Shown one piece after another: positions 1 through 49,407 of a stretch of 49,407 nucleotides of DNA. The notes beneath the pieces were generated by a model. The model was given only the letters and a program-made list of their open reading frames with translations. It was not told the origin of the DNA and searched no databases. A program made the translations under genes and the position numbers. The stretch spans positions 1 through 49,407 of IMG/VR virus record IMGVR_UViG_3300015203_000004; one strand, 5' to 3'. The DNA is from a virus. Positions within the stretch are counted from its first letter, which is position 1. Each line of letters starts with the position of its first letter.

Positions 1-99
1 ACATTACTATACATTTGCTTAACATTATCAAGATTACTTGACTGATTCTGCACGGTCGCAGCGCAATGTAAAGATTTCTTTGCTGTTCTTTGCCATATC
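1..99. repeat. Left copy of 99-bp exact direct terminal repeat (identical to 49309..49407)
   Basis: Base-by-base identity of acattactatacatttgcttaac...ctttgccatatc at both window ends. Confidence 0.95.
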
Positions 100-13317: not shown

Positions 13318-15219
13318 ATGAAGAAAAATTTCCATAGTGAGACTGATTATCAACCTGAAGCTCCTGTAAATCTTCCTATCCCTAAAATAAGCGATGCTAC
13401 ATGGCAGTCTCTTGGTGAGACTGCCATGATTCTTATAAACATCAATTTAGGGAATAGATCGGAACTAGACGAATCATTGAATATATGGAACTCCATGTAT
13501 GAGATGAGAGTCACGCCTAGAGATTCACCGTGGCCGAATGCTTCTAATTTATCAATACCCTTGATACCCGCTCAGGTGGAAGAATTTGTCGCTAGGGTTG
13601 GTGGTTCAGTGTTATTGCCTCGTCCTTTCAGTGTACGTGGCAATGATAGTAACTCTTCTGTTTATAGTCATTCTGTGGAACAGTTTTACAACGGCAAGTA
13701 CACCTCGAACAGGTGGGATGATGCCTTCTTCACCGGGATTCATCTCTCCGCCCGCGATGGGGTCACCATCATGGAAATCATGTGGGAACTTTCTACTTAT
13801 GAGAGAATCTTCATTGCCGACTCAATGGACGACCAGGGTCAGCCTACAAAGATAAAACAGAAGGTCAAGTTCACTCAGTACAATGATCCAAAGCTTAGGC
13901 CGGTAGAACTCAGAGACTTTCTTCTAGTACCGGCACATGCGACTTCGATTGAAGAAGCGGATGCTTGCTGTCGAAAAGAATACATGAGCGAAGCAGCCCT
14001 ACGAAAGCTAGTCAATTCGGGTGTTCTTGATGAAGATCGAGTCGAGTTCGCCCTTTCTTATGTCTCTACCGGGCAGGGAGACTTGTCTTATGATAGGCAA
14101 GGTGATTCCACATATACTATCTCAGGTAAAATCAATGTAACTGATGTGGCAGTCGCGCCTCCCGACGGAGTCAAGATGGAGAGAGGTCCTATCACGGTCT
14201 GGCGCATCCACACCAATCAGTACGACCTTGATAACGACGGAGTCCCCGAAGAGAACATACTGTGGGTGCACGACCGCAGTAGAACTCTCCTCGGATACAC
14301 ACCTTTCGAGTACTTACAGGGAAGACCATTCAAATCTCTAGCGCCCTTTCCTCGTCCTAATAGATTCTATGGATTCAGTATTCCAGAGCGCCTCAAGGAC
14401 CTTCAAGATGAACTGAACGCGCAACACAATGGCCGCCTCGACCTCATGGATTGGGCTCTCAATCCTACCACGATCAAAGAACCTAACGTCCGTCTTCGAG
14501 AAGAAGATATGGGTATGGGTCCCGGCATCATGATTGACGCCAAACCAGGATCCATTAGCTTCCTGACGGCTCCCGAAGTTCCTCAGTCCTCCTGGACTGA
14601 AGAGCAGTCAATTATGATGTATGCGCAGGCCATTATGGGTGCTCCTCAAGCAATGGGTCCCCAACAACAACAGTCATCGGGAGGTAATAGAAGTGCGAGA
14701 TCGGCCCAGCAGAATGCGGCTGTCGCGGGTTTACCTACGAATATTGTCCTCAAGAGAGTCCGTTCATGGATGCAGGAGTGTTTCGAGTATATTCATGGTC
14801 TTTACATCCAGTATGGCAAAGACCAAATGGAGGCAGTTGACCATAGCCCCGGCGGTGCTCAAAAAATTGAACTACCGAAGGAAATCCTCTCACTGGATTA
14901 CACTCTGTCCATCGCAGGTCAGGGGGGTCCTCTCGATAAGGAAAATAGACGAAATGACCTTCTCATGTTTGCCTCTTTCCTCCAGAGCAACCCTCTCGTT
15001 CAAGGTAATCTCCCCCGGATCTGGGCTCTCACGGCTCTTATAGCTGAAACTTATGATCTACCTGAAGTGACGAAGTTCATTGGTACTATGGAAGAAGCTC
15101 AACAACAGGGACAACAGCAGGCCCAGCAGCAAGAGATGCAACAGAAGATGCAGTTCGCTCTCGCTGCTATGAATCACGGAAAGGTGGAATCAAGTGGCAA
15201 GCCACCTGGCGGAGCATAA
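13318..15219 (+). CDS. Portal protein (by size and position)
   Basis: 633 aa, first gene of the scaffold-capsid block, Q-rich acidic C-terminus; no motif verified. Confidence 0.55.
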   Translation: MKKNFHSETDYQPEAPVNLPIPKISDATWQSLGETAMILININLGNRSELDESLNIWNSMYEMRVTPRDSPWPNASNLSIPLIPAQVEEFVARVGGSVLLPRPFSVRGNDSNSSVYSHSVEQFYNGKYTSNRWDDAFFTGIHLSARDGVTIMEIMWELSTYERIFIADSMDDQGQPTKIKQKVKFTQYNDPKLRPVELRDFLLVPAHATSIEEADACCRKEYMSEAALRKLVNSGVLDEDRVEFALSYVSTGQGDLSYDRQGDSTYTISGKINVTDVAVAPPDGVKMERGPITVWRIHTNQYDLDNDGVPEENILWVHDRSRTLLGYTPFEYLQGRPFKSLAPFPRPNRFYGFSIPERLKDLQDELNAQHNGRLDLMDWALNPTTIKEPNVRLREEDMGMGPGIMIDAKPGSISFLTAPEVPQSSWTEEQSIMMYAQAIMGAPQAMGPQQQQSSGGNRSARSAQQNAAVAGLPTNIVLKRVRSWMQECFEYIHGLYIQYGKDQMEAVDHSPGGAQKIELPKEILSLDYTLSIAGQGGPLDKENRRNDLLMFASFLQSNPLVQGNLPRIWALTALIAETYDLPEVTKFIGTMEEAQQQGQQQAQQQEMQQKMQFALAAMNHGKVESSGKPPGGA

Positions 15220-16823: not shown

Positions 16824-17771
16824 ATGCCTGCACTTATTTATCCAGCGCAAGCCCCCTTGGCGCTTACTCCCGCCGGTTTTACCGGGGCTTTGCCTGTCGA
16901 TAACTACACGGCAGCCGCTCATTGTTCAGATAATGCAATAGTTGTCCTCTCCGCCGGTACGGCTGCAGAGGGTTTATTCATTCTCGGCGGTACCTTTGTC
17001 TCGGGCGACACGATCACGTATAATGTGAACGGTTCAGGCGCGACCGTTATTCCGGTGACTAGTTCAGCCCAAGCGCTCGCCGCAGTGGTCGCAAGCATCA
17101 ATGCTCGTACGGCTCTCACCTTAGTGACGGCACAAGTTGTCCCCCTCCCATCTGGTCAAGTGATCCTGATGACGGCGAATGTCGCCGGCGTGGGCGGTAA
17201 TGCAATCACGATTGTGATTTCAACGACCTCAGTCACTGGCTCAGTCGCAGCTTCTAATGCTACTCTTGCTGGCGGCTCGGTTCTCGTTACTCCGGGTATC
17301 ATTCCTGCTCCGGTAAACGTGGCAGTCGGAATCGTTGGTATTGCACAGCATGACTCAAATAATAACTACGGCGGTACGATAAATCCTCCGGCTCCGACCC
17401 AAAACGTCTTCGGTGTCTCGCAGGTCGGCGGACTTCTCCCGATTTCCCCTTCGCAAACGATTGTTGCTACTCTTGGGTACGGCGTTGAAGTTGCGATCAA
17501 TCTGACTCAATCAACGGGTTGGATAGCGGGCGGGACTCAACAAGCGACCCTTGGAACCCCTGTCGGTCTGAACATTGACCCGGTCACCGGCTTCTATGTT
17601 GCAGATCCTACCCTCTCTAACCTGGTGGCCTTCGTAGTCGGTAAGATCAATGGGCCATTTGCTTCCAGCAATGCCCTTCGCCCCGGAGCGGGCAGCGATG
17701 TCGGTAACCTTGGAACTCGCGTCCGTATTGCCTTTAATGCTGCGGCTCTCGCCGTGTTAGCTGGAGAATAG
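16824..17771 (+). CDS. Abundant-looking A/G/V/T-rich structural protein (decoration or capsid-associated)
   Basis: Follows terminator/promoter, precedes capsid gene; aa 45-151 share a module with aa 308-427 of the 18794 gene. Confidence 0.5.
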   Translation: MPALIYPAQAPLALTPAGFTGALPVDNYTAAAHCSDNAIVVLSAGTAAEGLFILGGTFVSGDTITYNVNGSGATVIPVTSSAQALAAVVASINARTALTLVTAQVVPLPSGQVILMTANVAGVGGNAITIVISTTSVTGSVAASNATLAGGSVLVTPGIIPAPVNVAVGIVGIAQHDSNNNYGGTINPPAPTQNVFGVSQVGGLLPISPSQTIVATLGYGVEVAINLTQSTGWIAGGTQQATLGTPVGLNIDPVTGFYVADPTLSNLVAFVVGKINGPFASSNALRPGAGSDVGNLGTRVRIAFNAAALAVLAGE

Positions 17772-17775
17772 TTTA

Positions 17776-18723
17776 GTGTCTAACTTGATCAATAGCAGAA
17801 CTTATTTCCAAGCTCAGACGAAGCAGCTTAACAAGATATATACGAACTCGACCCCGACTGAGCCGTTGCGTTACCCGTCAGTTTTTAACTCGTACGAAGG
17901 CGATCCGGCGCATGGCTTCCTTCAAATGATGTCCCTCGTTGGCTTTGGTACCTTGAATGAGTTGACAGAAGGCCAGGCGGCTTCCGTTGATGCTACTAAA
18001 GAGGGCCTTATTAGTTTCTTCCCATATGTCTCTTATGCCTTGAAGTATCAAGTTACGAAGATCATGATGAGAGAAGATGCGAAACGTATTATCCCGAAAC
18101 TTCCGGGTTTGCTCCGCTACTCCAGTGACCAGACGAAAGAGTTTTTGTTCTGGAACGTCTTCAACTTAGCGTTTAACCCGTCTATCCCGTTGGCTGATGG
18201 TCAACCTCTCTGTAGCAACGCGCATCCTCTTCAAGGTTCGTCTTCACAACCACTGGTGTCGAGCTATAGCAACTTCCTCGGCGCAGTCTCACTGACGGTT
18301 GAAACGCTTCAACAAGCATACATCCTTATGGCGAACATCCCGGACGACCGTGGCCTTATCACTCACCGCACTCCTTCACAGTTGATCTTCCCATTAGGTC
18401 TTCAGCAGACGGCGACGGAACTTCTTTCCTCGAGCTACTACCCAACGAGCAACGAGAATCGCGTTAACGCGGTTGCTGGTTCGATCACCCCAATGCCGGT
18501 GGTTTACCTCACGGCTGCCGCCGGTGGCCCGTTTCCGTGGTTCGTACTTGCTGGTAAGGGTGAGCCCGGCCAGGACTCGCACTCAGTCTTCGCTTCAGTT
18601 AAGTGGGATGAGCAGCGTTCATGGATGGATGAGCAATGTGAGAACATGTTCCAACAGACTGAGTTCCGTGCAGTATGGGGCACGGTCGACGCGAGAGGCG
18701 TCGTTGGTTCCGCCGGAGCGTAA
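17776..18723 (+). CDS. Putative major capsid protein
   Basis: GTG start with GGAGA RBS, 315 aa, position after scaffold, followed by a hairpin; general resemblance to HK97-type coat N-terminal region, not verified. Confidence 0.5.
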   Translation: MSNLINSRTYFQAQTKQLNKIYTNSTPTEPLRYPSVFNSYEGDPAHGFLQMMSLVGFGTLNELTEGQAASVDATKEGLISFFPYVSYALKYQVTKIMMREDAKRIIPKLPGLLRYSSDQTKEFLFWNVFNLAFNPSIPLADGQPLCSNAHPLQGSSSQPLVSSYSNFLGAVSLTVETLQQAYILMANIPDDRGLITHRTPSQLIFPLGLQQTATELLSSSYYPTSNENRVNAVAGSITPMPVVYLTAAAGGPFPWFVLAGKGEPGQDSHSVFASVKWDEQRSWMDEQCENMFQQTEFRAVWGTVDARGVVGSAGA

Positions 18724-18732
18724 GAACTAACA

Positions 18733-18757
18733 AAGGCTCCTTAACCGGAGCCTTCTT
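18733..18757 (+). terminator. Hairpin with T-rich tail after the capsid gene
   Basis: aaggctcc ttaacc ggagcctt cttt. Confidence 0.5.
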
Positions 18758-18793: not shown

Positions 18794-20407
18794 ATGCCGA
18801 TCAAGCAGATTCAATCCAAATCACGGTTGCCCGAGTCTCTTCAGTATAATGCATGGGCTCCTCTTCGTGTTACCCCCGTTGTTGTGCCGGCTTTCGCTCA
18901 GAATTCAACTGCGATTCAATCGATAAACCCTCTCGGTCTTAACTATAAGATCACGCATCTCTCATACACATTGAGCAACTTTGCGATAGTTCCCGCCGGG
19001 TCTAACCCCTCTGCGGCTCCTGCAGTTCCTCTCGCTTCTGCAGTAACCTATGGAATCCTCGCCGGCACTACGGTTACCAATACCGGGTCTACCACCATCA
19101 ACGGCGACCTCGGCTTAACTCCCGGCTCTGCTATAACTGGTTCCCCGACCGTAACTGGTGCAACGAATGTCACCAACCCGGCTGCTGTTGCGGCGCAGAA
19201 TGATCTTACTGCTGCGTACAATAATGCGGCGGGCAGAACTCCTTCGATCTCTGTGCCTTCTGACATCGGCGGTTTAACTCTCACCCCAGGTGTCTACTCG
19301 GCTGCATCTTCGCTAGGGATAACTGGCACAGTCACGTTAAATGGTCAAGGTAATGCCAATGCGGTTTGGATATTTCAAATCCCTACCTCACTGACGACAT
19401 CAGTCAGTGGCGCAGTCGTATTAACGAATGGTGCAAGCGCAAAGAATGTCTTCTGGCAAGTTGGTAGTTCTGCGACTTTGGGGGCTACCTCCACCTTCAA
19501 CGGTACCATTCTTGCACTGACGACGATTACGGCTAATACCGGCGCAATCATCAATGGTAGACTGCTCGCTCGTAACGGCGCAGTCAATCTTGCGGGTAAC
19601 ACCATCACTGTCCCGGCTGCCCCTTCCCTTCCAGTTCCTTTCGGTGTTCCCTCCGGCAACAATTTCGCCGCCGGTAAACTTGCTTTGAACATTGTAAATG
19701 GCGTTGGTGCATACGAAGGAGCCGGAGCAGCTTCCTCATACGCATATCTTACTCTCGGAGGTACATTCGTAACTGGTGACAAGATCACTGTGTCGATCCT
19801 AGGTATTCCATACGTTTATACAGTTTCCGCTCGCGGCGTTAGTTTACAGTATATCGGTCAGGCACTTACTACATCATTTAATCGCCAAACGTTGAACTCA
19901 ACAGCAGCGGGCATTTTCCCCGGTTTCAACACCTTGTATCGTGCAAACTCACTCGGAGCCGAAGTCGTCATTCAGACCCTAGCCTACAGTACGGCTACTC
20001 CTTCCTTCACGGTTTCTACGAACAGCGTCGCCGGTACAGTTACCGCTAGCGGAGCAACAATGGTAGCCGGAGTTGCTGGCGCTCTCCCAGGTGTGCCTGC
20101 GTCCGATACGACGAGCATTGGCATCGTGCCTTCGCAAGTTGGAGCAGTCGGTACTGCACTATTCCCAGTTGACATCGTTCTTCCGCTCTTCAATGCGAGT
20201 CAAGCAGATCTTGGAGGCACTATTTATGCCATTGAGAACTTTGATGTTAATTGGCCTACGTTAGCTGAAATGACCCTTCGCATTACCGCTGACGGAGTGG
20301 TCGCAGGCGGGTTGAATGTCATTCTTTGGGGCGTCCCGAATGATATTAGTCCAATGATGCCGGAGGAAGCTAACACAGCCTTCCATCTTTCCCAAATCAT
20401 TCTCTAA
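18794..20407 (+). CDS. Structural-module protein with DUF3494 ice-binding-like beta-helix domain
   Basis: YGILAGTTVTNTGSTTINGDLGLTPGSAITG..., AAQNDLTAAYNNAA, GLTLTPGVY, NAVWIFQI, LTNGASAKNVFWQVGSSATLG, FNGTILA, INGRLLARNGAVNL match IBP-1/DUF3494 hallmarks in order. Confidence 0.8.
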   Translation: MPIKQIQSKSRLPESLQYNAWAPLRVTPVVVPAFAQNSTAIQSINPLGLNYKITHLSYTLSNFAIVPAGSNPSAAPAVPLASAVTYGILAGTTVTNTGSTTINGDLGLTPGSAITGSPTVTGATNVTNPAAVAAQNDLTAAYNNAAGRTPSISVPSDIGGLTLTPGVYSAASSLGITGTVTLNGQGNANAVWIFQIPTSLTTSVSGAVVLTNGASAKNVFWQVGSSATLGATSTFNGTILALTTITANTGAIINGRLLARNGAVNLAGNTITVPAAPSLPVPFGVPSGNNFAAGKLALNIVNGVGAYEGAGAASSYAYLTLGGTFVTGDKITVSILGIPYVYTVSARGVSLQYIGQALTTSFNRQTLNSTAAGIFPGFNTLYRANSLGAEVVIQTLAYSTATPSFTVSTNSVAGTVTASGATMVAGVAGALPGVPASDTTSIGIVPSQVGAVGTALFPVDIVLPLFNASQADLGGTIYAIENFDVNWPTLAEMTLRITADGVVAGGLNVILWGVPNDISPMMPEEANTAFHLSQIIL

Positions 20408-20416
20408 AGGTGTAAT

Positions 20417-20851
20417 ATGGCTAGTGGCAATTCCACGATGGGCAATGCTGCTGGGCAGCAAATAGCCTCCTTCACTGCAGCAGGGGACTCCGGTCCTCTG
20501 CTTTACTATGTATCGCCTGCAGGCAACTGGCCTATCAACTATTCTCTGATCCGTACCCGCAAAGAGTTCACGATTGGTCTAGGCGGATCTGGTGCAGGTC
20601 TTCAAGTCACAATGTACTTCACGACTGACCGTGATACAGCGGCGGGAGTCTCTGCTAACCCAGTCTGGTATCTCTGTCCTGCTCCATCCACTGAGTCTTC
20701 AGCCCAGTGGTCAAATCCAATGCAGAATACTGTCGGACTTAATGTACTCAACTTCAAGGCTAATGCTATCGCACTGCGTGCAGTAGCAACGGCTATTGTC
20801 GGTGGTCCCGCGATTACAGGAACTACGAACGTCATCCTCATGGCGAATTAA
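20417..20851 (+). CDS. Hypothetical structural protein
   Basis: 144-aa beta-rich ORF in head/tail module. Confidence 0.45.
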   Translation: MASGNSTMGNAAGQQIASFTAAGDSGPLLYYVSPAGNWPINYSLIRTRKEFTIGLGGSGAGLQVTMYFTTDRDTAAGVSANPVWYLCPAPSTESSAQWSNPMQNTVGLNVLNFKANAIALRAVATAIVGGPAITGTTNVILMAN

Positions 20852-20873
20852 TGTGGCGCAATCAGAGCAGCAA

Positions 20874-21512
20874 ATGGCCGTTCAAAAAATCAAGGATCCC
20901 GGCAAGCGTAAAGCAGCTTACTATAAGTTACAACGTGAGCACGCCGAAGAGTCCGGTGACCAGGCTACTACCGACAAGATATACTCCAAACTTGGTAAGA
21001 AGTCACATAATGTCGATTCCACTCGCGGTGACAAGGCTATCCTTGGTGCTGCTCCTTTCATTCCTGAGGCCCTCGCTGGTCTAGGCGAAATGGCCGCTGC
21101 AAGAGGTGCGTTGGGGGTAGGTAAAATGATACCTCGCCTCGGTCGTGCAGCAGAAGGCGGGGAAGCGGGAACAGCGTCTAAATCATTGGTTCCTCGCAGA
21201 TCCTCTACACCCCCAGAGAAGTCATATCAACACTTAGGACGTGCTACCCCTGTAAAAAAAGCATTGCCCTCTAATAAGAGGGCTCTCGGCGACTCCGGTA
21301 AAGCTCCCAGTGTTGGGAGAAAGTCGTCCTCCAAAACTCTATCAGGTAAACAGGGATCTAAGGCTCTAACAAGTGGCTCACAGAAAGCATTGCCATCTGG
21401 GGATCATAAGGCATTCGACAACGAACTAGCCGCGCAAACAAAAAGATCAAAAATACCGGGTGGCAAAAAGGGCGCAATCAAGGGTTCTAGGAAAAAGGTA
21501 GTCGCCTCATAA
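20874..21512 (+). CDS. Lys/Ser/Gly-rich basic protein (alternative GTG start 20853)
   Basis: Disordered basic composition, KKGAIKGSRKKVVAS tail. Confidence 0.45.
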   Translation: MAVQKIKDPGKRKAAYYKLQREHAEESGDQATTDKIYSKLGKKSHNVDSTRGDKAILGAAPFIPEALAGLGEMAAARGALGVGKMIPRLGRAAEGGEAGTASKSLVPRRSSTPPEKSYQHLGRATPVKKALPSNKRALGDSGKAPSVGRKSSSKTLSGKQGSKALTSGSQKALPSGDHKAFDNELAAQTKRSKIPGGKKGAIKGSRKKVVAS

Positions 21513-21527
21513 AACGAGAATACTCAG

Positions 21528-21713
21528 TTGCAGATAGATCACGTACATTCTGATGGCTTTTTACACAGAAAGTACGGTTCAGGTGGTACAATAAAATACA
21601 TGCGCGAAGTACTTAACGATGAATTGGGACGATTTCAGTTATTGTGTGCTAACTGTAATTGGATTAAGAGGTCTGAAGATCTCATAAATCGGGAGATGAT
21701 AAAGTTAATTTAG
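21528..21713 (+). pseudogene. Truncated HNH endonuclease, C-terminal half only, paralog of 210..620
   Basis: QIDHVHSDG...FQLLCANCNWIKR parallels FDHRDG...DLVCLNCHALR. No ATG (TTG only), and the N-terminal Cys ribbon is missing. Confidence 0.45.
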
Positions 21714-21739: not shown

Positions 21740-22531
21740 ATGATGGACGAAGCCTCTACCAAGAGGTTTACTGCCGCAGATGTCGCACAACTCGCAACTC
21801 GTGCTCAAAATCAGGTTGCCTTTGAAGTTGACCATCCCGAGAGCACACAGAACATACTTCTTGTCTCCGGGCAACAGGAATATCAACTTATTGACCTTAT
21901 GAAGTTACTGAGAGTTTACACTGCGGTGTTCAACTCTGATAATCCTAACTTCCCTTTTACCTTCAAACAAGAACTCATAGCTACGAACATCGGCACACTA
22001 GAAGGTGACGTCATTCAAAGATATGACAATTCCTCTGGCATAGTGCCGCAGACCTCGAAATATATAGCTCAACAGCCGGAGTTGTACCCGTATGCCGGAG
22101 GTCCTAATAACGCTCGGGGTTTCGGGAATAATAGCTGTGAGCCCTATCCTACAAATATGCCGTGGAGTAGCTGTAATAGTCGTCCCTCATACTACTTGAG
22201 AGGGGGCTATATCGGTGTTGTACCCATTCCGTTGCAGTCAAACCCACCAACTTATCTGATGATCGACTGTACCCCGGCCCCGCCTGCGCTAGTTAATACC
22301 ACGGATAATTCTATTTACCCTGATATCTTCCTAGAAGCTATCGTTTGGAAGATGATTGAGTATGCGTCTTACTCGGATCATAATTCCGCACAAATGCAAG
22401 CTGCTCAGATGTACCAAAACGAAGTGACGATGAAGATTAACCCGTGGATACAACGTTTACAGGCTACTAGGCCGAAAACTATGGTTCCGATCACTAAGCG
22501 TACTTATTTCAGACGCGGAGGCATCCGATGA
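21740..22531 (+). CDS. Hypothetical tail/adaptor-module protein
   Basis: 263-aa ORF by position; no motif. Confidence 0.4.
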   Translation: MMDEASTKRFTAADVAQLATRAQNQVAFEVDHPESTQNILLVSGQQEYQLIDLMKLLRVYTAVFNSDNPNFPFTFKQELIATNIGTLEGDVIQRYDNSSGIVPQTSKYIAQQPELYPYAGGPNNARGFGNNSCEPYPTNMPWSSCNSRPSYYLRGGYIGVVPIPLQSNPPTYLMIDCTPAPPALVNTTDNSIYPDIFLEAIVWKMIEYASYSDHNSAQMQAAQMYQNEVTMKINPWIQRLQATRPKTMVPITKRTYFRRGGIR

Positions 22532-30082: not shown

Positions 30083-31273
30083 ATGTCTCTAGGATCGTTT
30101 CAAGCCCCTAATATGGGAGGAGGACTCTTAGGAATCCTATCTAGTGTTCTTGGTGGCATGCAACAAGGGAAAGAACAGAAGTTCGAACACGGCGAAAAAG
30201 TTCAGCAAGACAAGCAGAAGGCCGATGAAGCTGCTCAGAATCTGCAGATGAATCAACTTGCTATGAGGCAGACGGACCAGCAGCTTCAGCAGAACGCCAT
30301 TACGATGCAGCATAACGCCAAGGTGGGTGCTCAAGGGGATCTTCAGCAGCTTACTCAGCAGATGATTACTGATCCTTCACGGGCCAAAGATCCTGCATTT
30401 ATTGCTAGGTACAATCAGCTCTCCACTGCCGCCGGTCAACTTCCCGAGATGACTAAGGATGGGTCAGTTGATGTTAACCGACTAAAGCCTGGAATCAACA
30501 CCCTGGATCCAAAGCAACTTACAGCAATCATGGCTTTGCCCTCTGCTCAAAGGAAGACGGTACTCGACCAGTACTCCGGTGTTAATAAAAGCTTTTATAC
30601 TAATTCAGCAGTTGTATCTGTGAAAGATCAAATTGCCCTAAAGAAGATTGATTCACTCGATAGTCATTATATTAGAAAGGACCAAATTGAGGATCGTTTA
30701 GCTACTGTAAGATCGACATACTATGATGCGGAGACAAACGAACTGATACCGGCTAAGACAGGAGCTTATTATGCGGCAGCCAGTCTGGATGCTGCCAGAG
30801 GATTAGCCGTTGTAACGACGGCGAATGCAGCTATGTCTAGGGCTAATTCATATGCTACTTCTGTTAAAAACACTATGGAGCGTTTTCATTCATCCCCAAA
30901 TGGAGCACTAGGCGCAGTTCGCTCATTACTGACTACTTCTAGTTCGCAATTATCGAGTCTTCGCGCTGCGGTCGTTAGTGCGGAAAAGAGTCTATCAACA
31001 GATTATGGCAGTGTTACGGACCCGGATCAGCTTAGCGCCGCTACTCAGGCTGTAGCAGACGCTAAAGAAGCCTTAAAGTCTGCTGTAGAAGTAGATCAAC
31101 AACTACGTGCTAGTGTGAGAGGTAACCCACAGGTTTCCTCCTTCCTCGGCGCTGGATCCGGGAAACCCGCTGAGAACGTAGGATCTGGCAGTAATGCAAA
31201 AACTGTATACAGCACATCTGGAGGTAAGCCGATCATATCAACCGATGGCGGCAAAATCTGGAAGTATCAATAA
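30083..31273 (+). CDS. Q-rich coiled-coil internal virion protein candidate
   Basis: Composition and position (T7 gp15-like slot). Confidence 0.45.
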   Translation: MSLGSFQAPNMGGGLLGILSSVLGGMQQGKEQKFEHGEKVQQDKQKADEAAQNLQMNQLAMRQTDQQLQQNAITMQHNAKVGAQGDLQQLTQQMITDPSRAKDPAFIARYNQLSTAAGQLPEMTKDGSVDVNRLKPGINTLDPKQLTAIMALPSAQRKTVLDQYSGVNKSFYTNSAVVSVKDQIALKKIDSLDSHYIRKDQIEDRLATVRSTYYDAETNELIPAKTGAYYAAASLDAARGLAVVTTANAAMSRANSYATSVKNTMERFHSSPNGALGAVRSLLTTSSSQLSSLRAAVVSAEKSLSTDYGSVTDPDQLSAATQAVADAKEALKSAVEVDQQLRASVRGNPQVSSFLGAGSGKPAENVGSGSNAKTVYSTSGGKPIISTDGGKIWKYQ

Positions 31274-33741
31274 TGCCTATCGTCCCAGATGGGCCGATCT
31301 CTGATTCTCCGATCCAACCTGACGGCCCGATATCTAGCACTCCTATCAAACCTGACGCTCCAGTAGCATCTTCCCCTGTTTCTCCTCCCGCCGAGATAAA
31401 GCCAGACGGGGCTATCTCCGATAAACCAATTATTCCTGACGGACCTATCTCTCATCAGGCTCCTAACCCCATTCACACCCCCCATACCTTTGATGCCGTG
31501 ATAAACTCCGTATCAAGCAAGGTTGGGGTTAGTGCTCGCATGATGCAGGCTATTGGTATGCAAGAGTCTGGTCTTGGGTCAGGCGGTAACTACAATTCCG
31601 CGACAGGTCGAGACAAAGACGGTAATCAAGGCGTTAGTCCTTGGCAGTTAGACCCCGCTTCCGGCATCTCTAAGGACAAGCTAGCTCGTGCTGCAAAGGA
31701 CCCAGCCTATGCCGCCGAGTTATCTGCTAACATGATGTCTGCTAACCTCAAAGCTACGGGTGGTAACATGCGGGAGGCTCTCTCCATGTACAACTCGGGA
31801 AGTCCTACTTCAAAAGTTGGACTAGAGTACGCGGACAGCGTCATGAGGTTCATGAATAATGACGAGTCTCTCTCGGGCAGTGCCTCACTAATAAGTAAAA
31901 TTCAACATGATGCTAAAGCAGTAGTTCACGCTGCCACACACGGCGGTGTAACCCCAAAAACGTTAGCCGGTCTACAGACGACAAGACCCCTACATAATTT
32001 AGAAGTTCAAGGGCTCGAAGCCTGGGACACTCTAAGACACCATCCAGTTGATGGTGTCCTCAATGCTATGGGAGCCTTGCAACGCGGGATCGGCGGAACA
32101 CTACATGAATCGACTACACTGAAGCCAGGTGATTTGACCCCCGAGAAGTTGCAGGCCCATCTTCACAACATCTGGGATATGGTCATTAATCCTACTCCCA
32201 AGAATCAAGCCAAGTCCACTGCTGGACTTGGGGAAGCTGTTAATCTGATAGCTGGTAGAACACTCGTTCCATCTCATGCACAGATTGACTCATGGGTGAG
32301 AAACGGACTGCATGCGCCAGCGGTAATACAGCCGTACGTTGATGGCCTTCTTGAGACAGGTGAGGACATCACGGAGCAAGTCCTGACTGGCGGGCCAAGT
32401 GCTGTGGGCAGAGGTCTTGTTCATATCGGCCTAAAAGCCCCTGGATTAGTTGCAAGGGCTGCTCATGCTACTGCTGAGGGCATGGGAATAGCTAAACACT
32501 TCCCGCATCTTGACCTTTCTGCAAAGGCACACGATGCGCTCGCAGACGCATTCGTAGCACGTCGCGATCTCGATAGAGCCGGACTCACTCCTCAAGGTAA
32601 GAAGATTCGCCTCTCCATCGAAGAGAAGCATCTTAGTCTCAATCCCGATGATGTACACGCAGCCGCTCGTGGGGCTAATGCCGAATTTGGTAGACTTGTA
32701 AGAGAACAGCCGGGGAAATTTCATACAGGAGATCCTAGAGTAATAAGAGGTCTGGGACTGCAGGATAACTCGGGACTAATGAGAGCCTTCCGATCAGTTG
32801 AAGAACATAACCCTCTCGTTAAGGTTGCTAAGTTGGGTAAGCAGGCTATTCTCTGGAATCCCGTACCCCACGGTCTTGTGAACGTAGGCACTCTGTCATA
32901 TATGGCAGGCGGCATCCCCGCTGTTATGCGGGGTTTTGCTCATATGATTAAACCTGTGGCAGGTGTTGAAGACCGTCTAAAGACAATGGGGGGGATGCAG
33001 GATTACATCGTTCCCGCTAACAACAAAATAAGTCAAGCGGGAAATGATCTTCTTCACCACATGGAGGTCGGCTGGAGATCTGGACTGCTCGAGCAGCTAG
33101 ATAAGAAACTAGGCGCTTCGGCTCCTGGATCTGCAGAAGAATATCTAAAGGGCCATTTAATTTCAAATCGAGTAGGAGACTATCGGAATCAATCGGCATT
33201 CGTAAAGATGTTTCAGGCATTGGGGGGCCCTTTCGTAGCTTTCGGTCTAGGCATAGTTCCAGAGCAGTTCCTAAAAACCTTGAAGGAGGATCCCCATAGG
33301 ATCTATCAGATGCTTCAGGCTCAACAAGACATACAGAGTAACCGTCAGGGTAAACGTAAGAATACCATAGAGTTTAACAATCCCATGACTCAGGCGGCCA
33401 AACTCTTCTCGGACCCTGTTCACTATCTTACTAGCCCCTCTAGAGGGGGGGCCTTAGCGGAACTAGGTCAACTCAGAGAAGATGAAGATAACACTAGGTT
33501 CAAAGGTGTAGGTCAGTATGGTATAGACCTAGCCTCCTCCTTCATACCCGGTGCAGAAGACCTCGGTAAAGTAGCAAGTTCTCTGTCAGGTAACGCAATG
33601 CCCGGTCAGAAGATGTCGATAGTAGACCGCCTGGCTGTAGCTATTGAAGGTACTTTCCTTAATACCTTCTATCAGAAGGCAGAGAAGCCTAAGAATGTTA
33701 GAGCAGCCAAGAAGAAGATAAGCAAAGGAGTGGGGATATGA
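31273..33741 (+). CDS. Internal virion protein with lytic transglycosylase (SLT) domain
   Basis: MMQAIGMQESGLG (catalytic Glu-Ser), ..ALSMYNSGSP; 822 aa; T7 gp16-like role. Confidence 0.75.
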   Translation: MPIVPDGPISDSPIQPDGPISSTPIKPDAPVASSPVSPPAEIKPDGAISDKPIIPDGPISHQAPNPIHTPHTFDAVINSVSSKVGVSARMMQAIGMQESGLGSGGNYNSATGRDKDGNQGVSPWQLDPASGISKDKLARAAKDPAYAAELSANMMSANLKATGGNMREALSMYNSGSPTSKVGLEYADSVMRFMNNDESLSGSASLISKIQHDAKAVVHAATHGGVTPKTLAGLQTTRPLHNLEVQGLEAWDTLRHHPVDGVLNAMGALQRGIGGTLHESTTLKPGDLTPEKLQAHLHNIWDMVINPTPKNQAKSTAGLGEAVNLIAGRTLVPSHAQIDSWVRNGLHAPAVIQPYVDGLLETGEDITEQVLTGGPSAVGRGLVHIGLKAPGLVARAAHATAEGMGIAKHFPHLDLSAKAHDALADAFVARRDLDRAGLTPQGKKIRLSIEEKHLSLNPDDVHAAARGANAEFGRLVREQPGKFHTGDPRVIRGLGLQDNSGLMRAFRSVEEHNPLVKVAKLGKQAILWNPVPHGLVNVGTLSYMAGGIPAVMRGFAHMIKPVAGVEDRLKTMGGMQDYIVPANNKISQAGNDLLHHMEVGWRSGLLEQLDKKLGASAPGSAEEYLKGHLISNRVGDYRNQSAFVKMFQALGGPFVAFGLGIVPEQFLKTLKEDPHRIYQMLQAQQDIQSNRQGKRKNTIEFNNPMTQAAKLFSDPVHYLTSPSRGGALAELGQLREDEDNTRFKGVGQYGIDLASSFIPGAEDLGKVASSLSGNAMPGQKMSIVDRLAVAIEGTFLNTFYQKAEKPKNVRAAKKKISKGVGI
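31282..31458 (+). repeat. Tandem PDGPIS-type decapeptide repeats (about 30-nt period, 5-6 copies)
   Basis: VPDGPISDSPIQ PDGPISSTPIK PDAPVASSPVS..IKPDGAISDKPII PDGPISHQ. Confidence 0.8.
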
Positions 33742-49308: not shown

Positions 49309-49407
49309 ACATTACTATACATTTGCTTAACATTATCAAGATTACTTGACTGATTCTGCACGGTCGCAGCGCAATGTAAAGATTTCTTTGCTGTTCTTTG
49401 CCATATC
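49309..49407. repeat. Right copy of 99-bp exact direct terminal repeat
   Basis: Identical to 1..99. Confidence 0.95.

Follow-up and report, generated by a model that had tools for sequence, protein, structure and literature searches.

Proteins of the DUF3494 family (Pfam PF11999) are described as ice-binding and as substrate-binding or adhesive, and probably recognize a repeating surface (PMC7783341; PMC12337378). They adopt the IBP-1 fold, a discontinuous triangular beta-solenoid braced by a long alpha helix, with the first coil lying next to the last one, and a signal peptide is a common feature of the cellular members (PMC11645318). EfcIBP (PDB 6EIO) and AnpIBP (7BWY/7BWX) are "capless" members with a flat b face, on which ordered rows of Thr/Ser are spaced by about 4.5-4.8 Å; horizontal transfer of DUF3494 is known, its donors and mechanisms being little known (PMC7783341). 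Here we describe this domain, the most widespread microbial ice-binding/adhesion domain, as a relocating cassette in a phage head-module protein. The protein, designated X, is encoded in IMG/VR virus record IMGVR_UViG_3300015203_000004, all 49,407 nt of which were analyzed (hereafter the window). The cassette was absent from 50,697 GenBank phage records, yet recurrent in uncultured soil-type phages.

Like the capless proteins, X showed a full PF11999 match and was predicted to form a beta-solenoid with a bracing helix and no capping head. Unlike these secreted or surface-anchored cellular proteins with signal peptides, X held the domain internally, within a phage head-module protein lacking a signal peptide. 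Cell-surface "ice adhesins" (SfIBP_1 of Shewanella frigidimarina, PDB 6BG8; Big_5 + DUF3494 proteins) also have DUF3494 presented by beta-sandwich or other modules, and PF13205 plus PF11999 (Big_5 + DUF3494) was the commonest architecture among the closest database matches. However, the presenter in X was a putative phage particle protein and not a cell-envelope stalk, and DUF3494 was looped in rather than placed in tandem. Among phage proteins, X was comparable to decoration and head-fiber proteins (T4 Hoc; SU10 gp10, epsilon15 gp10 and phi29 gp8.5; Syn5 gp55 and gp58), being encoded by a non-essential-looking accessory gene beside the capsid gene and bearing binding-type domains that would be exposed. 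Between its capsid and adaptor genes, SU10 encodes gp10, which is predicted to be a minor-capsid/head-fiber-like protein, and a tail fiber gene follows the adaptor gene (PMC9509320); X lay in the slot of this putative minor capsid protein. Unlike the decoration proteins, to which no sequence or fold homology was detected, X carried a beta-solenoid and not an Ig-like domain, and its binding to the capsid is putative.

A complete DUF3494 domain inserted in a loop of protein X

Gene X was an intact open reading frame (ORF) of 537 amino acids (aa) with an ATG start and the sequence AGGAAG 8 nt upstream. An identical protein with the same neighbors was present on an independent Logan assembly (ERR4837134, 15,995-bp contig), showing that gene X was not an assembly chimera. 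The PF11999 profile matched X with an E value of 6.5e-60 and 202.8 bits (gathering threshold, 28.7 bits), spanning residues 88-272 and profile positions 1-208 of 208. In a PDB sequence search with X, 25 DUF3494 ice-binding or antifreeze chains were recovered, the best being EfcIBP (6eio, E 7e-47, residues 76-275); the window domain was 41-45% identical to EfcIBP and AnpIBP. In an AlphaFold2 model built from a 52-sequence alignment, residues 80-275 had a predicted local distance difference test (pLDDT) score of about 97, with helix 129-146 flanked by strands, so that the predicted domain showed the beta-solenoid and the single long bracing helix that define the IBP-1 fold. When the model was compared with known structures in Foldseek, 31 ice-binding protein chains were matched with E values below 1e-12, including AnpIBP (7bwy; E 3e-20, TM(target) 0.96, root-mean-square deviation 1.0 Å) and EfcIBP (TM 0.90). 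A first-pass annotation of the window had proposed the domain by eye at residues 83-273 from a series of family motifs; both the range and the motifs were correct, far beyond chance. It had also noted that X has no signal peptide, in agreement with our inspection of the N-terminus MPIKQIQSKSRLPESLQYNAW, which contained no hydrophobic stretch and no signal peptide, the DUF3494 domain beginning at about residue 80. X holds a genuine and complete DUF3494/IBP-1 domain; it is an ordinary PF11999 member, and its novelty lies in its context.

Fifteen short homologues of X (296-322 aa, 51-75% identity to X) had no Pfam domain; their alignment to X covered residues 1-63 and 286-537 and left a clean gap where the DUF3494 block lies. 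The domain is a cassette inserted in a loop of a pre-existing conserved protein and not a terminal fusion; the first-pass annotation had described it as fused to a C-terminal module, which has to be replaced by an insertion between residues 63 and 286. The adjacency of the first coil to the last one in the DUF3494 fold (PMC11645318) means that a host protein can accommodate the domain as a loop insertion. On each side, the block was flanked by a Pro/Ala-rich linker (AIVPAGSNPSAAPAVP and AAPSLPVPFGVPSG) that was disordered in the model.

When 1.84 billion representative proteins were searched exhaustively with a profile, 88 relatives were recovered, 40 of them with E values below 1e-10. The minimal form was found in many relatives of 176-190 aa (about 180), which matched the profile in its N- and C-terminal parts alone (e.g., P0141 and P0158). 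Most close relatives (about 315 aa) added one module of about 110 aa to this core, P0131 had two such modules, and a few relatives carried DUF3494. Residues invariant in the family alignment were L16, Y18, W21, L47, L49, N50, K52, I53 and Y58 in the N-terminal core part, and P446, S447, F457, P458, E481, D484, P488, T494, G513, V514, P515, D517 and F530 in the C-terminal part. A short homologue was modeled with a pLDDT of 76 and a predicted TM (pTM) score of 0.79, in which strands from the N- and C-terminal parts formed a beta sandwich and the module lay between these parts. The pTM was 0.49 for X with its cassette; this fall, together with linker pLDDT values below 50, is consistent with a flexibly tethered DUF3494 domain. 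Residues 22-61 of X formed beta strands, preceded by residues 1-19, whose sequence was conserved. The last 20 or so residues (518-537) were, like the first 19, strongly conserved, yet in both monomer models the two termini were disordered, a pattern that segments folding on an assembly partner would be expected to show.

Carriers, insertion sites and history of the cassette

DUF3494 was found within protein X in five distinct phages and at three insertion positions. The order N-terminal core, ice-binding protein (IBP) domain, module and C-terminal core was common to the window, to P0003 (541 aa, a full-length homologue with 58% identity to X, present in three datasets) and to L005 (IMG/VR, 50.3 kb). 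In P0160, encoded on a 46.6-kb contig with the same synteny, the IBP domain lay between the first and second core strands, and residues 242-526 aligned to positions 28-309 of the X-family profile. In P0054 the domain followed the module, with residues 1-178 and 411-517 aligning to a short homologue.

In a neighbor-joining tree of 183 DUF3494 domains, taken from a hit list biased towards the query, the five phage IBP domains formed one clade with a bootstrap of 65/100. Its sister group was a pair of cellular-looking proteins whose hydrophobic N-terminus resembled a signal peptide or membrane anchor. By contrast, the host proteins of the carriers, compared after removal of the cassette, were monophyletic in 0 of 200 bootstraps: the window protein grouped with the non-carriers P0208 and P0004 (77-78% identity, bootstrap 86), and the L005 protein with the non-carrier P0025 (86% identity, bootstrap 100). 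For each carrier, the closest relatives of the host protein were without the cassette. The IBP domains forming one clade while the host proteins did not, the cassette has been exchanged, relocated or repeatedly lost among lineages. Independent acquisitions, suggested by the three sites and by the low identity of the window and P0160 domains (51%), were not upheld by the single clade, and one entry of DUF3494 followed by shuffling or exchange would fit better.

The IBP block was the best-conserved segment among carriers with the window architecture, which were 58-63% identical overall; identity was 69-71% in the block, compared with 50-64% in the rest and 38-50% in the linkers. GC content at third codon positions (GC3) in the cassette was 0.49, equal to that of the genome, with no compositional trace of a recent transfer. 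The high conservation of the block and its genome-like GC3 indicate long residence and purifying selection.

No match was found when the 50,697 GenBank phage records were searched by tblastn with two different DUF3494 queries, even at E 1 and 0.01, or with full X and a core-only homologue. PHROGs contained no family for X, for the short homologues or for the core-only homologues, and PDB profile searches with the X and pre-capsid families returned only insignificant matches (MpAFP RII, E 0.014-0.019; a metalloprotease, E 0.35). Our literature search found no report of DUF3494 in a virus or phage, and viruses are not mentioned in two recent surveys of the domain (PMC12337378; PMC11645318). The viral setting of DUF3494 is new; X would extend a known kind of protein, the modular structural accessory proteins with which phages display binding domains, and would be a DUF3494 adhesin in a virus. 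The first-pass annotation, which was aware of no virion-displayed DUF3494 protein, was right as far as GenBank phages and the literature are concerned; however, the window is not unique, four other phages carrying the cassette.

DUF3494 in uncultured phages was broader than the X family. Nine further IMG/VR viral contigs (L096-L104) encoded it in proteins unrelated to X. An FN3-like N-terminus, DUF3494 and a Pro-rich tail were combined in L097 (e.g., L097:4524-5921), L099 and L100. L098:1-3996 encoded a protein of more than 1332 aa beginning with DUF3494, and L102:4533-5627 a 364-aa DUF3494 protein directly upstream of a tail-fiber gene, with a terminase gene about 2.5 kb upstream.

Candidate functions of protein X

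On balance, X is probably a virion accessory protein in which DUF3494 acts as a particle-surface adhesin for a repetitive surface. Capsid decoration and minor capsid proteins are typically encoded in the head module, adjoining the major capsid gene, and this was the position of gene X. It lay directly 3′ of the capsid gene in the window, as the first-pass annotation had stated, and in 13 further loci (L001-L009, L012, L105, L107 and L110), where the capsid gene was identified by a Pfam match or by conserved size and position; in L013, a 312-aa ORF with no Pfam annotation lay upstream. Core-only X genes (177 and 183 aa) were also found directly after Phage_capsid_4 genes. That gene X always follows the capsid gene, together with its analogy to the gp10 slot of SU10, points to the capsid surface, and virion display, which the first-pass annotation had suggested, is plausible from synteny and from the second, surface-type module. 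Since DUF3494 proteins are described as ice- or substrate-binding and adhesive, an adhesin role on the particle is favored. Presence on the virion, capsid location, adhesin role and ligand identity are what we infer from this evidence.

The core of X would be a small beta sandwich (residues ~20-63 and ~455-515) with conserved unstructured termini. It may dock to the particle, most probably to the capsid lattice, because the X gene always adjoins the capsid gene, and its loops would form a display platform for exchangeable modules. In the window phage, one loop would bear two outward-facing modules in series, namely DUF3494 on its Pro/Ala linkers and then an alpha/beta module of about 110 aa, of a type that may decorate tail sheaths and flagellin. 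DUF3494 could be spliced into the loop without disturbing the host protein, its first and last coils being adjacent. Its flat, regularly spaced solenoid face would bind a repetitive surface, candidates for which are polysaccharides of the cell envelope or matrix, particles of mineral or organic matter, and ice where soil freezes. Hoc-type capsid decorations have been proposed to hold particles where hosts are, and the adhesin of X would likewise keep the particle near its hosts. The cassette would have been moved, gained and lost among related phages and kept under purifying selection, hence functional. If displayed on particles, it would be a virion adhesin of a new class, with a beta-solenoid in place of an Ig-like domain, bearing on how soil phages stay near their hosts; as X tolerates large inserts at three loops, it could act as a natural display platform.

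Several points weigh against this assignment. The protein occupying the equivalent slot in SU10, gp10, was not seen on SU10 capsids (PMC9509320). The placement of X in the virion is putative: searches by Foldseek against PDB and BFVD, by PDB profiles and in PHROGs revealed no homology of X to the characterized decoration proteins Hoc, Soc, gpD, epsilon15 gp10, phi29 gp8.5 and Syn5 gp55/gp58. No structure in PDB or BFVD matched the core fold with confidence, Foldseek against PDB giving only jelly-roll/concanavalin matches with a probability below 0.15 and a root-mean-square deviation of about 20 Å. A tail location is possible, since tail proteins also contain the second module and DUF3494 proteins of other viruses are encoded near tail-fiber genes. 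Further, the support for a single IBP clade is moderate (65%), coming from neighbor-joining trees on a query-biased hit list. A link of X to the knob-like decoration proteins gp55 and gp58 of Syn5 was tried separately and rejected (hhalign probability below 1%; BLASTP not significant).

The main rival reading is that X is a fiber or a receptor-binding accessory of the tail, docked for instance on the rim of the adaptor or portal, with the solenoid serving as a host-glycan recognition head and the cassette as a host-range determinant instead of a capsid decoration; we consider this unlikely. Beta-helical domains are classic phage tailspike heads, and X shares with tailspike and tail-fiber receptor-binding proteins a beta-helical domain swapped as a cassette between related phages, such gain, loss and shuffling being typical of receptor-binding proteins. 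The companion module resembles domains of tail sheath and tail tubular protein B and a KBS-P-1A protein encoded downstream of tail-fiber genes, and DUF3494 elsewhere in IMG/VR occurred in a protein of more than 1300 aa, in FN3-like fusions and beside a tail-fiber gene. However, in all loci examined, insert-free versions included, gene X stood directly behind the capsid gene and upstream of that of the adaptor, and a separate fiber-like 469-aa gene followed the adaptor gene, like gp12 in SU10. Most X relatives lacked DUF3494 and some lacked any insert, so that the core function must be something other than host recognition. The IBP-1 fold also differs from the trimeric pectate-lyase-like fold of tailspikes. 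With its gene between those of the capsid and the adaptor, its IBP-1 fold and no match to a PHROG tail family, X could not be classed as a tailspike or tail fiber.

It is improbable that the domain is a true ice-binding module marking cold adaptation, one that would attach virions to ice or to the walls of brine veins, or would suppress ice recrystallization around particles, in seasonally frozen or permafrost soil. The idea of anchoring to ice had come from the first-pass annotation. All solved relatives are ice-active, the closest being the capless EfcIBP and AnpIBP (41-45% identity, TM 0.90-0.96); this uniformity, however, reflects what has been studied. The b face of these two proteins bears Thr/Ser rows at ice-lattice spacing (PMC7783341), and the window domain was rich in Thr/Ser. 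Cell-surface "ice adhesins" composed of DUF3494 and beta-sandwich domains have been proposed (reference 8, as cited in PMC7783341; PDB 6bg8). By contrast, ice-binding sites are too poorly conserved to be read from sequence, and DUF3494 occurs worldwide, including the tropics, hot springs and warmer climates (PMC7783341; PMC11645318). When one genome per prokaryotic species was scanned, 426 relatives of the domain were found; the best 80 of the 426, at 44-60% identity, included Streptomyces lydicus, Actinoallomurus, Dehalobacter, an Akkermansia muciniphila metagenome-assembled genome (MAG), Methanoregula and many MAGs of Acidobacteriota and Bacteroidota from soil or wetland. Mesophiles among these cellular homologues, namely S. 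lydicus, Dehalobacter, the Akkermansia MAG and temperate soil MAGs, including those of soil Acidobacteriota, reached 47-60% identity, equal to or greater than that of the solved ice-binding proteins, and the cold habitat at which the first-pass annotation had hinted was not borne out. Further, a carrier (P0003) and a non-carrier (P0004) of the cassette both came from metagenome JGI 3300041809. Were the cassette nevertheless a genuine ice-binding module, which we doubt, these would be the first virus particles attaching to or controlling ice, and given that movement of the cassette from one phage lineage to another is demonstrable, they could also be the carriers behind the horizontal spread of DUF3494 genes, which was noted long ago but is unexplained.

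It is very unlikely that X is not a virion component at all (an assembly factor or a protein released at lysis) or that the cassette is a neutral passenger in a tolerant loop: no homologue of X with a known function was found and the hairpin after the capsid gene could uncouple expression, but X lay inside an otherwise purely structural gene block, and the cassette was the most conserved part of X across carriers 58-63% identical overall, intact in five phages at three sites and similar in composition to the rest of the genome.

Genome, head block and shared surface module

The two ends of the window (1-99 and 49309-49407) overlapped exactly over 99 bp, indicating that the phage genome is complete, either closed as a circle or terminally redundant, and about 49,308 bp long. 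The genome encoded a large terminase, a family A DNA polymerase, an SNF2 helicase, a ribonucleotide reductase small subunit, a PD-(D/E)XK nuclease and a nozzle-like protein (phrog_511). The source is an uncultured soil-type phage, a podophage of about 49 kb with an SU10-type portal and adaptor, whose relatives are SU10-like podophage genomes of about 50 kb. The portal and capsid proteins had at most about 30% identity to those of GenBank phages, except for one 74-residue portal segment at 38%, and the 13-kb head block had no counterpart among these phages by megablast. For the nearest GenBank phages, Alcaligenes phages QDWS535 and vir526, the local annotation consisted only of hypothetical proteins.

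Genes of the head block were arranged in the order portal, ~80 aa, ~255 aa, ~183 aa, pre-capsid, capsid, X, ~145 aa, ~220 aa, adaptor, fiber-like and nozzle-like, the fiber-like 469-aa gene standing directly after the adaptor gene. The same order was found in every locus reaching that far, a divergent one included. The coordinates of these features and of the parts of X are given in Table 1.

Table 1. Features of gene X and the surrounding head block (window coordinates)
Feature	Position	Strand	Basis
SU10-type portal gene, upstream edge of head block	13318..15219	+	PF23899 E 1.1e-25; phrog_1216
Pre-capsid 315-aa protein with ~100-aa surface module as insert	16824..17771	+	alignment with L009 orthologue; L012; hhalign
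Major capsid protein gene, immediately upstream of X	17776..18723	+	weak Mu gpT and PHROG major-head matches; weak PF25209; tblastn
Hairpin, 8-9 bp, between capsid gene and X, possible leaky terminator	18733..18754	+	not conserved in relatives
Gene X, capsid-module protein with DUF3494 cassette	18794..20407	+	ORF; identical protein on second assembly; cassette is an insertion in family alignment
X, N-terminal part of conserved core, residues 1-63	18794..18982	+	invariant residues; pLDDT and secondary structure
X, Pro/Ala-rich linker 1, residues 64-79, AIVPAGSNPSAAPAVP	18983..19030	+	pLDDT below 50 at 64-73; 38% identity, least conserved segment among carriers
X, DUF3494/IBP-1 beta-solenoid, residues 80-275, bracing helix 129-146	19031..19618	+	PF11999, PDB matches, pLDDT, Foldseek, conservation
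X, Pro-rich linker 2, residues 276-293, AAPSLPVPFGVPSGNNFA	19619..19672	+	pLDDT below 50 at 280-291; insertion boundary in alignment
X, second insert, alpha/beta "surface module", residues 294-430	19673..20083	+	hhalign to pre-capsid family; absent in core-only relatives; Foldseek
X, C-terminal core part, residues 431-537 and stop codon	20084..20407	+	invariant residues; strands 472-515
Conserved 144-aa gene, always after X	20417..20851	+	same position in every locus extending past X, 130-149 aa
SU10-type head-tail adaptor gene, downstream edge of head block	21740..22531	+	PF24175 E 5.4e-14

The ORF preceding X was identified as the major capsid protein gene. Its product had a weak precomputed match to PF25209 (Phage_capsid_4), the matches of the orthologues in L002, L003, L012, L105 and L107 being unmarked, and tblastn recovered annotated major capsid proteins at 24-30% identity. 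The first-pass annotation had placed a capsid-gene terminator between this gene and X. A hairpin was indeed present there; however, the number of terminator-like sites in the region (6) was not above that expected from shuffles (5.4), and in the relatives L002 and L005 the capsid gene and X had no intergenic gap. In two loci, a 202-aa HNH/endonuclease VII-type homing endonuclease gene (L008:3381-3989 and L007:2133-2741; phrog_2914, E 1e-28) was located between the capsid gene and X.

The first-pass annotation had also reported a C-terminal module common to X and the neighboring structural protein. This held for a sub-module of about 100 aa (residues 317-431 of X) but for no more than that part, itself a mobile insert. 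These X residues were homologous to residues 50-156 of the pre-capsid protein (BLASTP E 2e-5; hhalign probability 95.5%, E 1.4e-8), in which the module occupied residues ~45-150 (nt ~16956-17273). The pre-capsid orthologue of L009 (L009:2357-2938, 193 aa) lacked exactly the module block, that of L012 (L012:6104-7030) carried the module at another position (~145-235), and the module was missing from the core-only X relatives of about 180 aa. The surface module is thus itself a mobile insert, and both genes flanking the capsid gene were hotspots of domain insertion.

When compared by Foldseek, the module matched tail-sheath proteins of phages A-1(L), Milano, 7-7-1 and PhiTE in alignments of 106-145 columns, with a probability of 1.0 except for 7-7-1 (0.93-0.96). 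The matched columns probably belong to the outer, surface-exposed sheath domain, a point that the hit tables do not show. Tail tubular protein B was also matched. The module was further found in the central variable region of a flagellin (P0194) and, repeated up to 10 times, in proteins of 1,040-5,014 aa (P0154, P0197 and P0201). The best BFVD match was an uncharacterized protein of Cyanophage KBS-P-1A, which had only the surface module, and not the core, in common with X; this protein was assigned by its 207-aa length to CYZG_00012 (L108:17132-17755), a gene downstream of the tail-fiber genes in a T7-like cyanophage. Most contexts of the module are surface-exposed. Weak matches to the RII extender repeats of MpAFP (E 0.005-0.02) were obtained as well. 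The module had no Pfam family and looks like an undescribed family of surface-decoration domains.

Other genes of the window were noted in passing. Between the 144-aa gene and the adaptor gene, positions 20796-21512 encoded a Lys/Ser/Gly-rich, probably disordered protein of 212-238 aa, whose position was kept in all relatives, which had no family match and whose start was ambiguous (TTG at 20796, compared with a 212-aa call in L001). A 61-aa ORF before the adaptor gene (21528-21713) showed by eye an HNH-like DHVH...CANCN pattern and had no Pfam match. Further downstream, residues ~58-195 of an 822-aa protein (31273-33741) were lysozyme-like or of the "internal virion protein with endolysin domain" type (phrog_2013, E 1.6e-9; phrog_342, E 3.8e-7), and this protein is probably ejected and degrades the cell wall.

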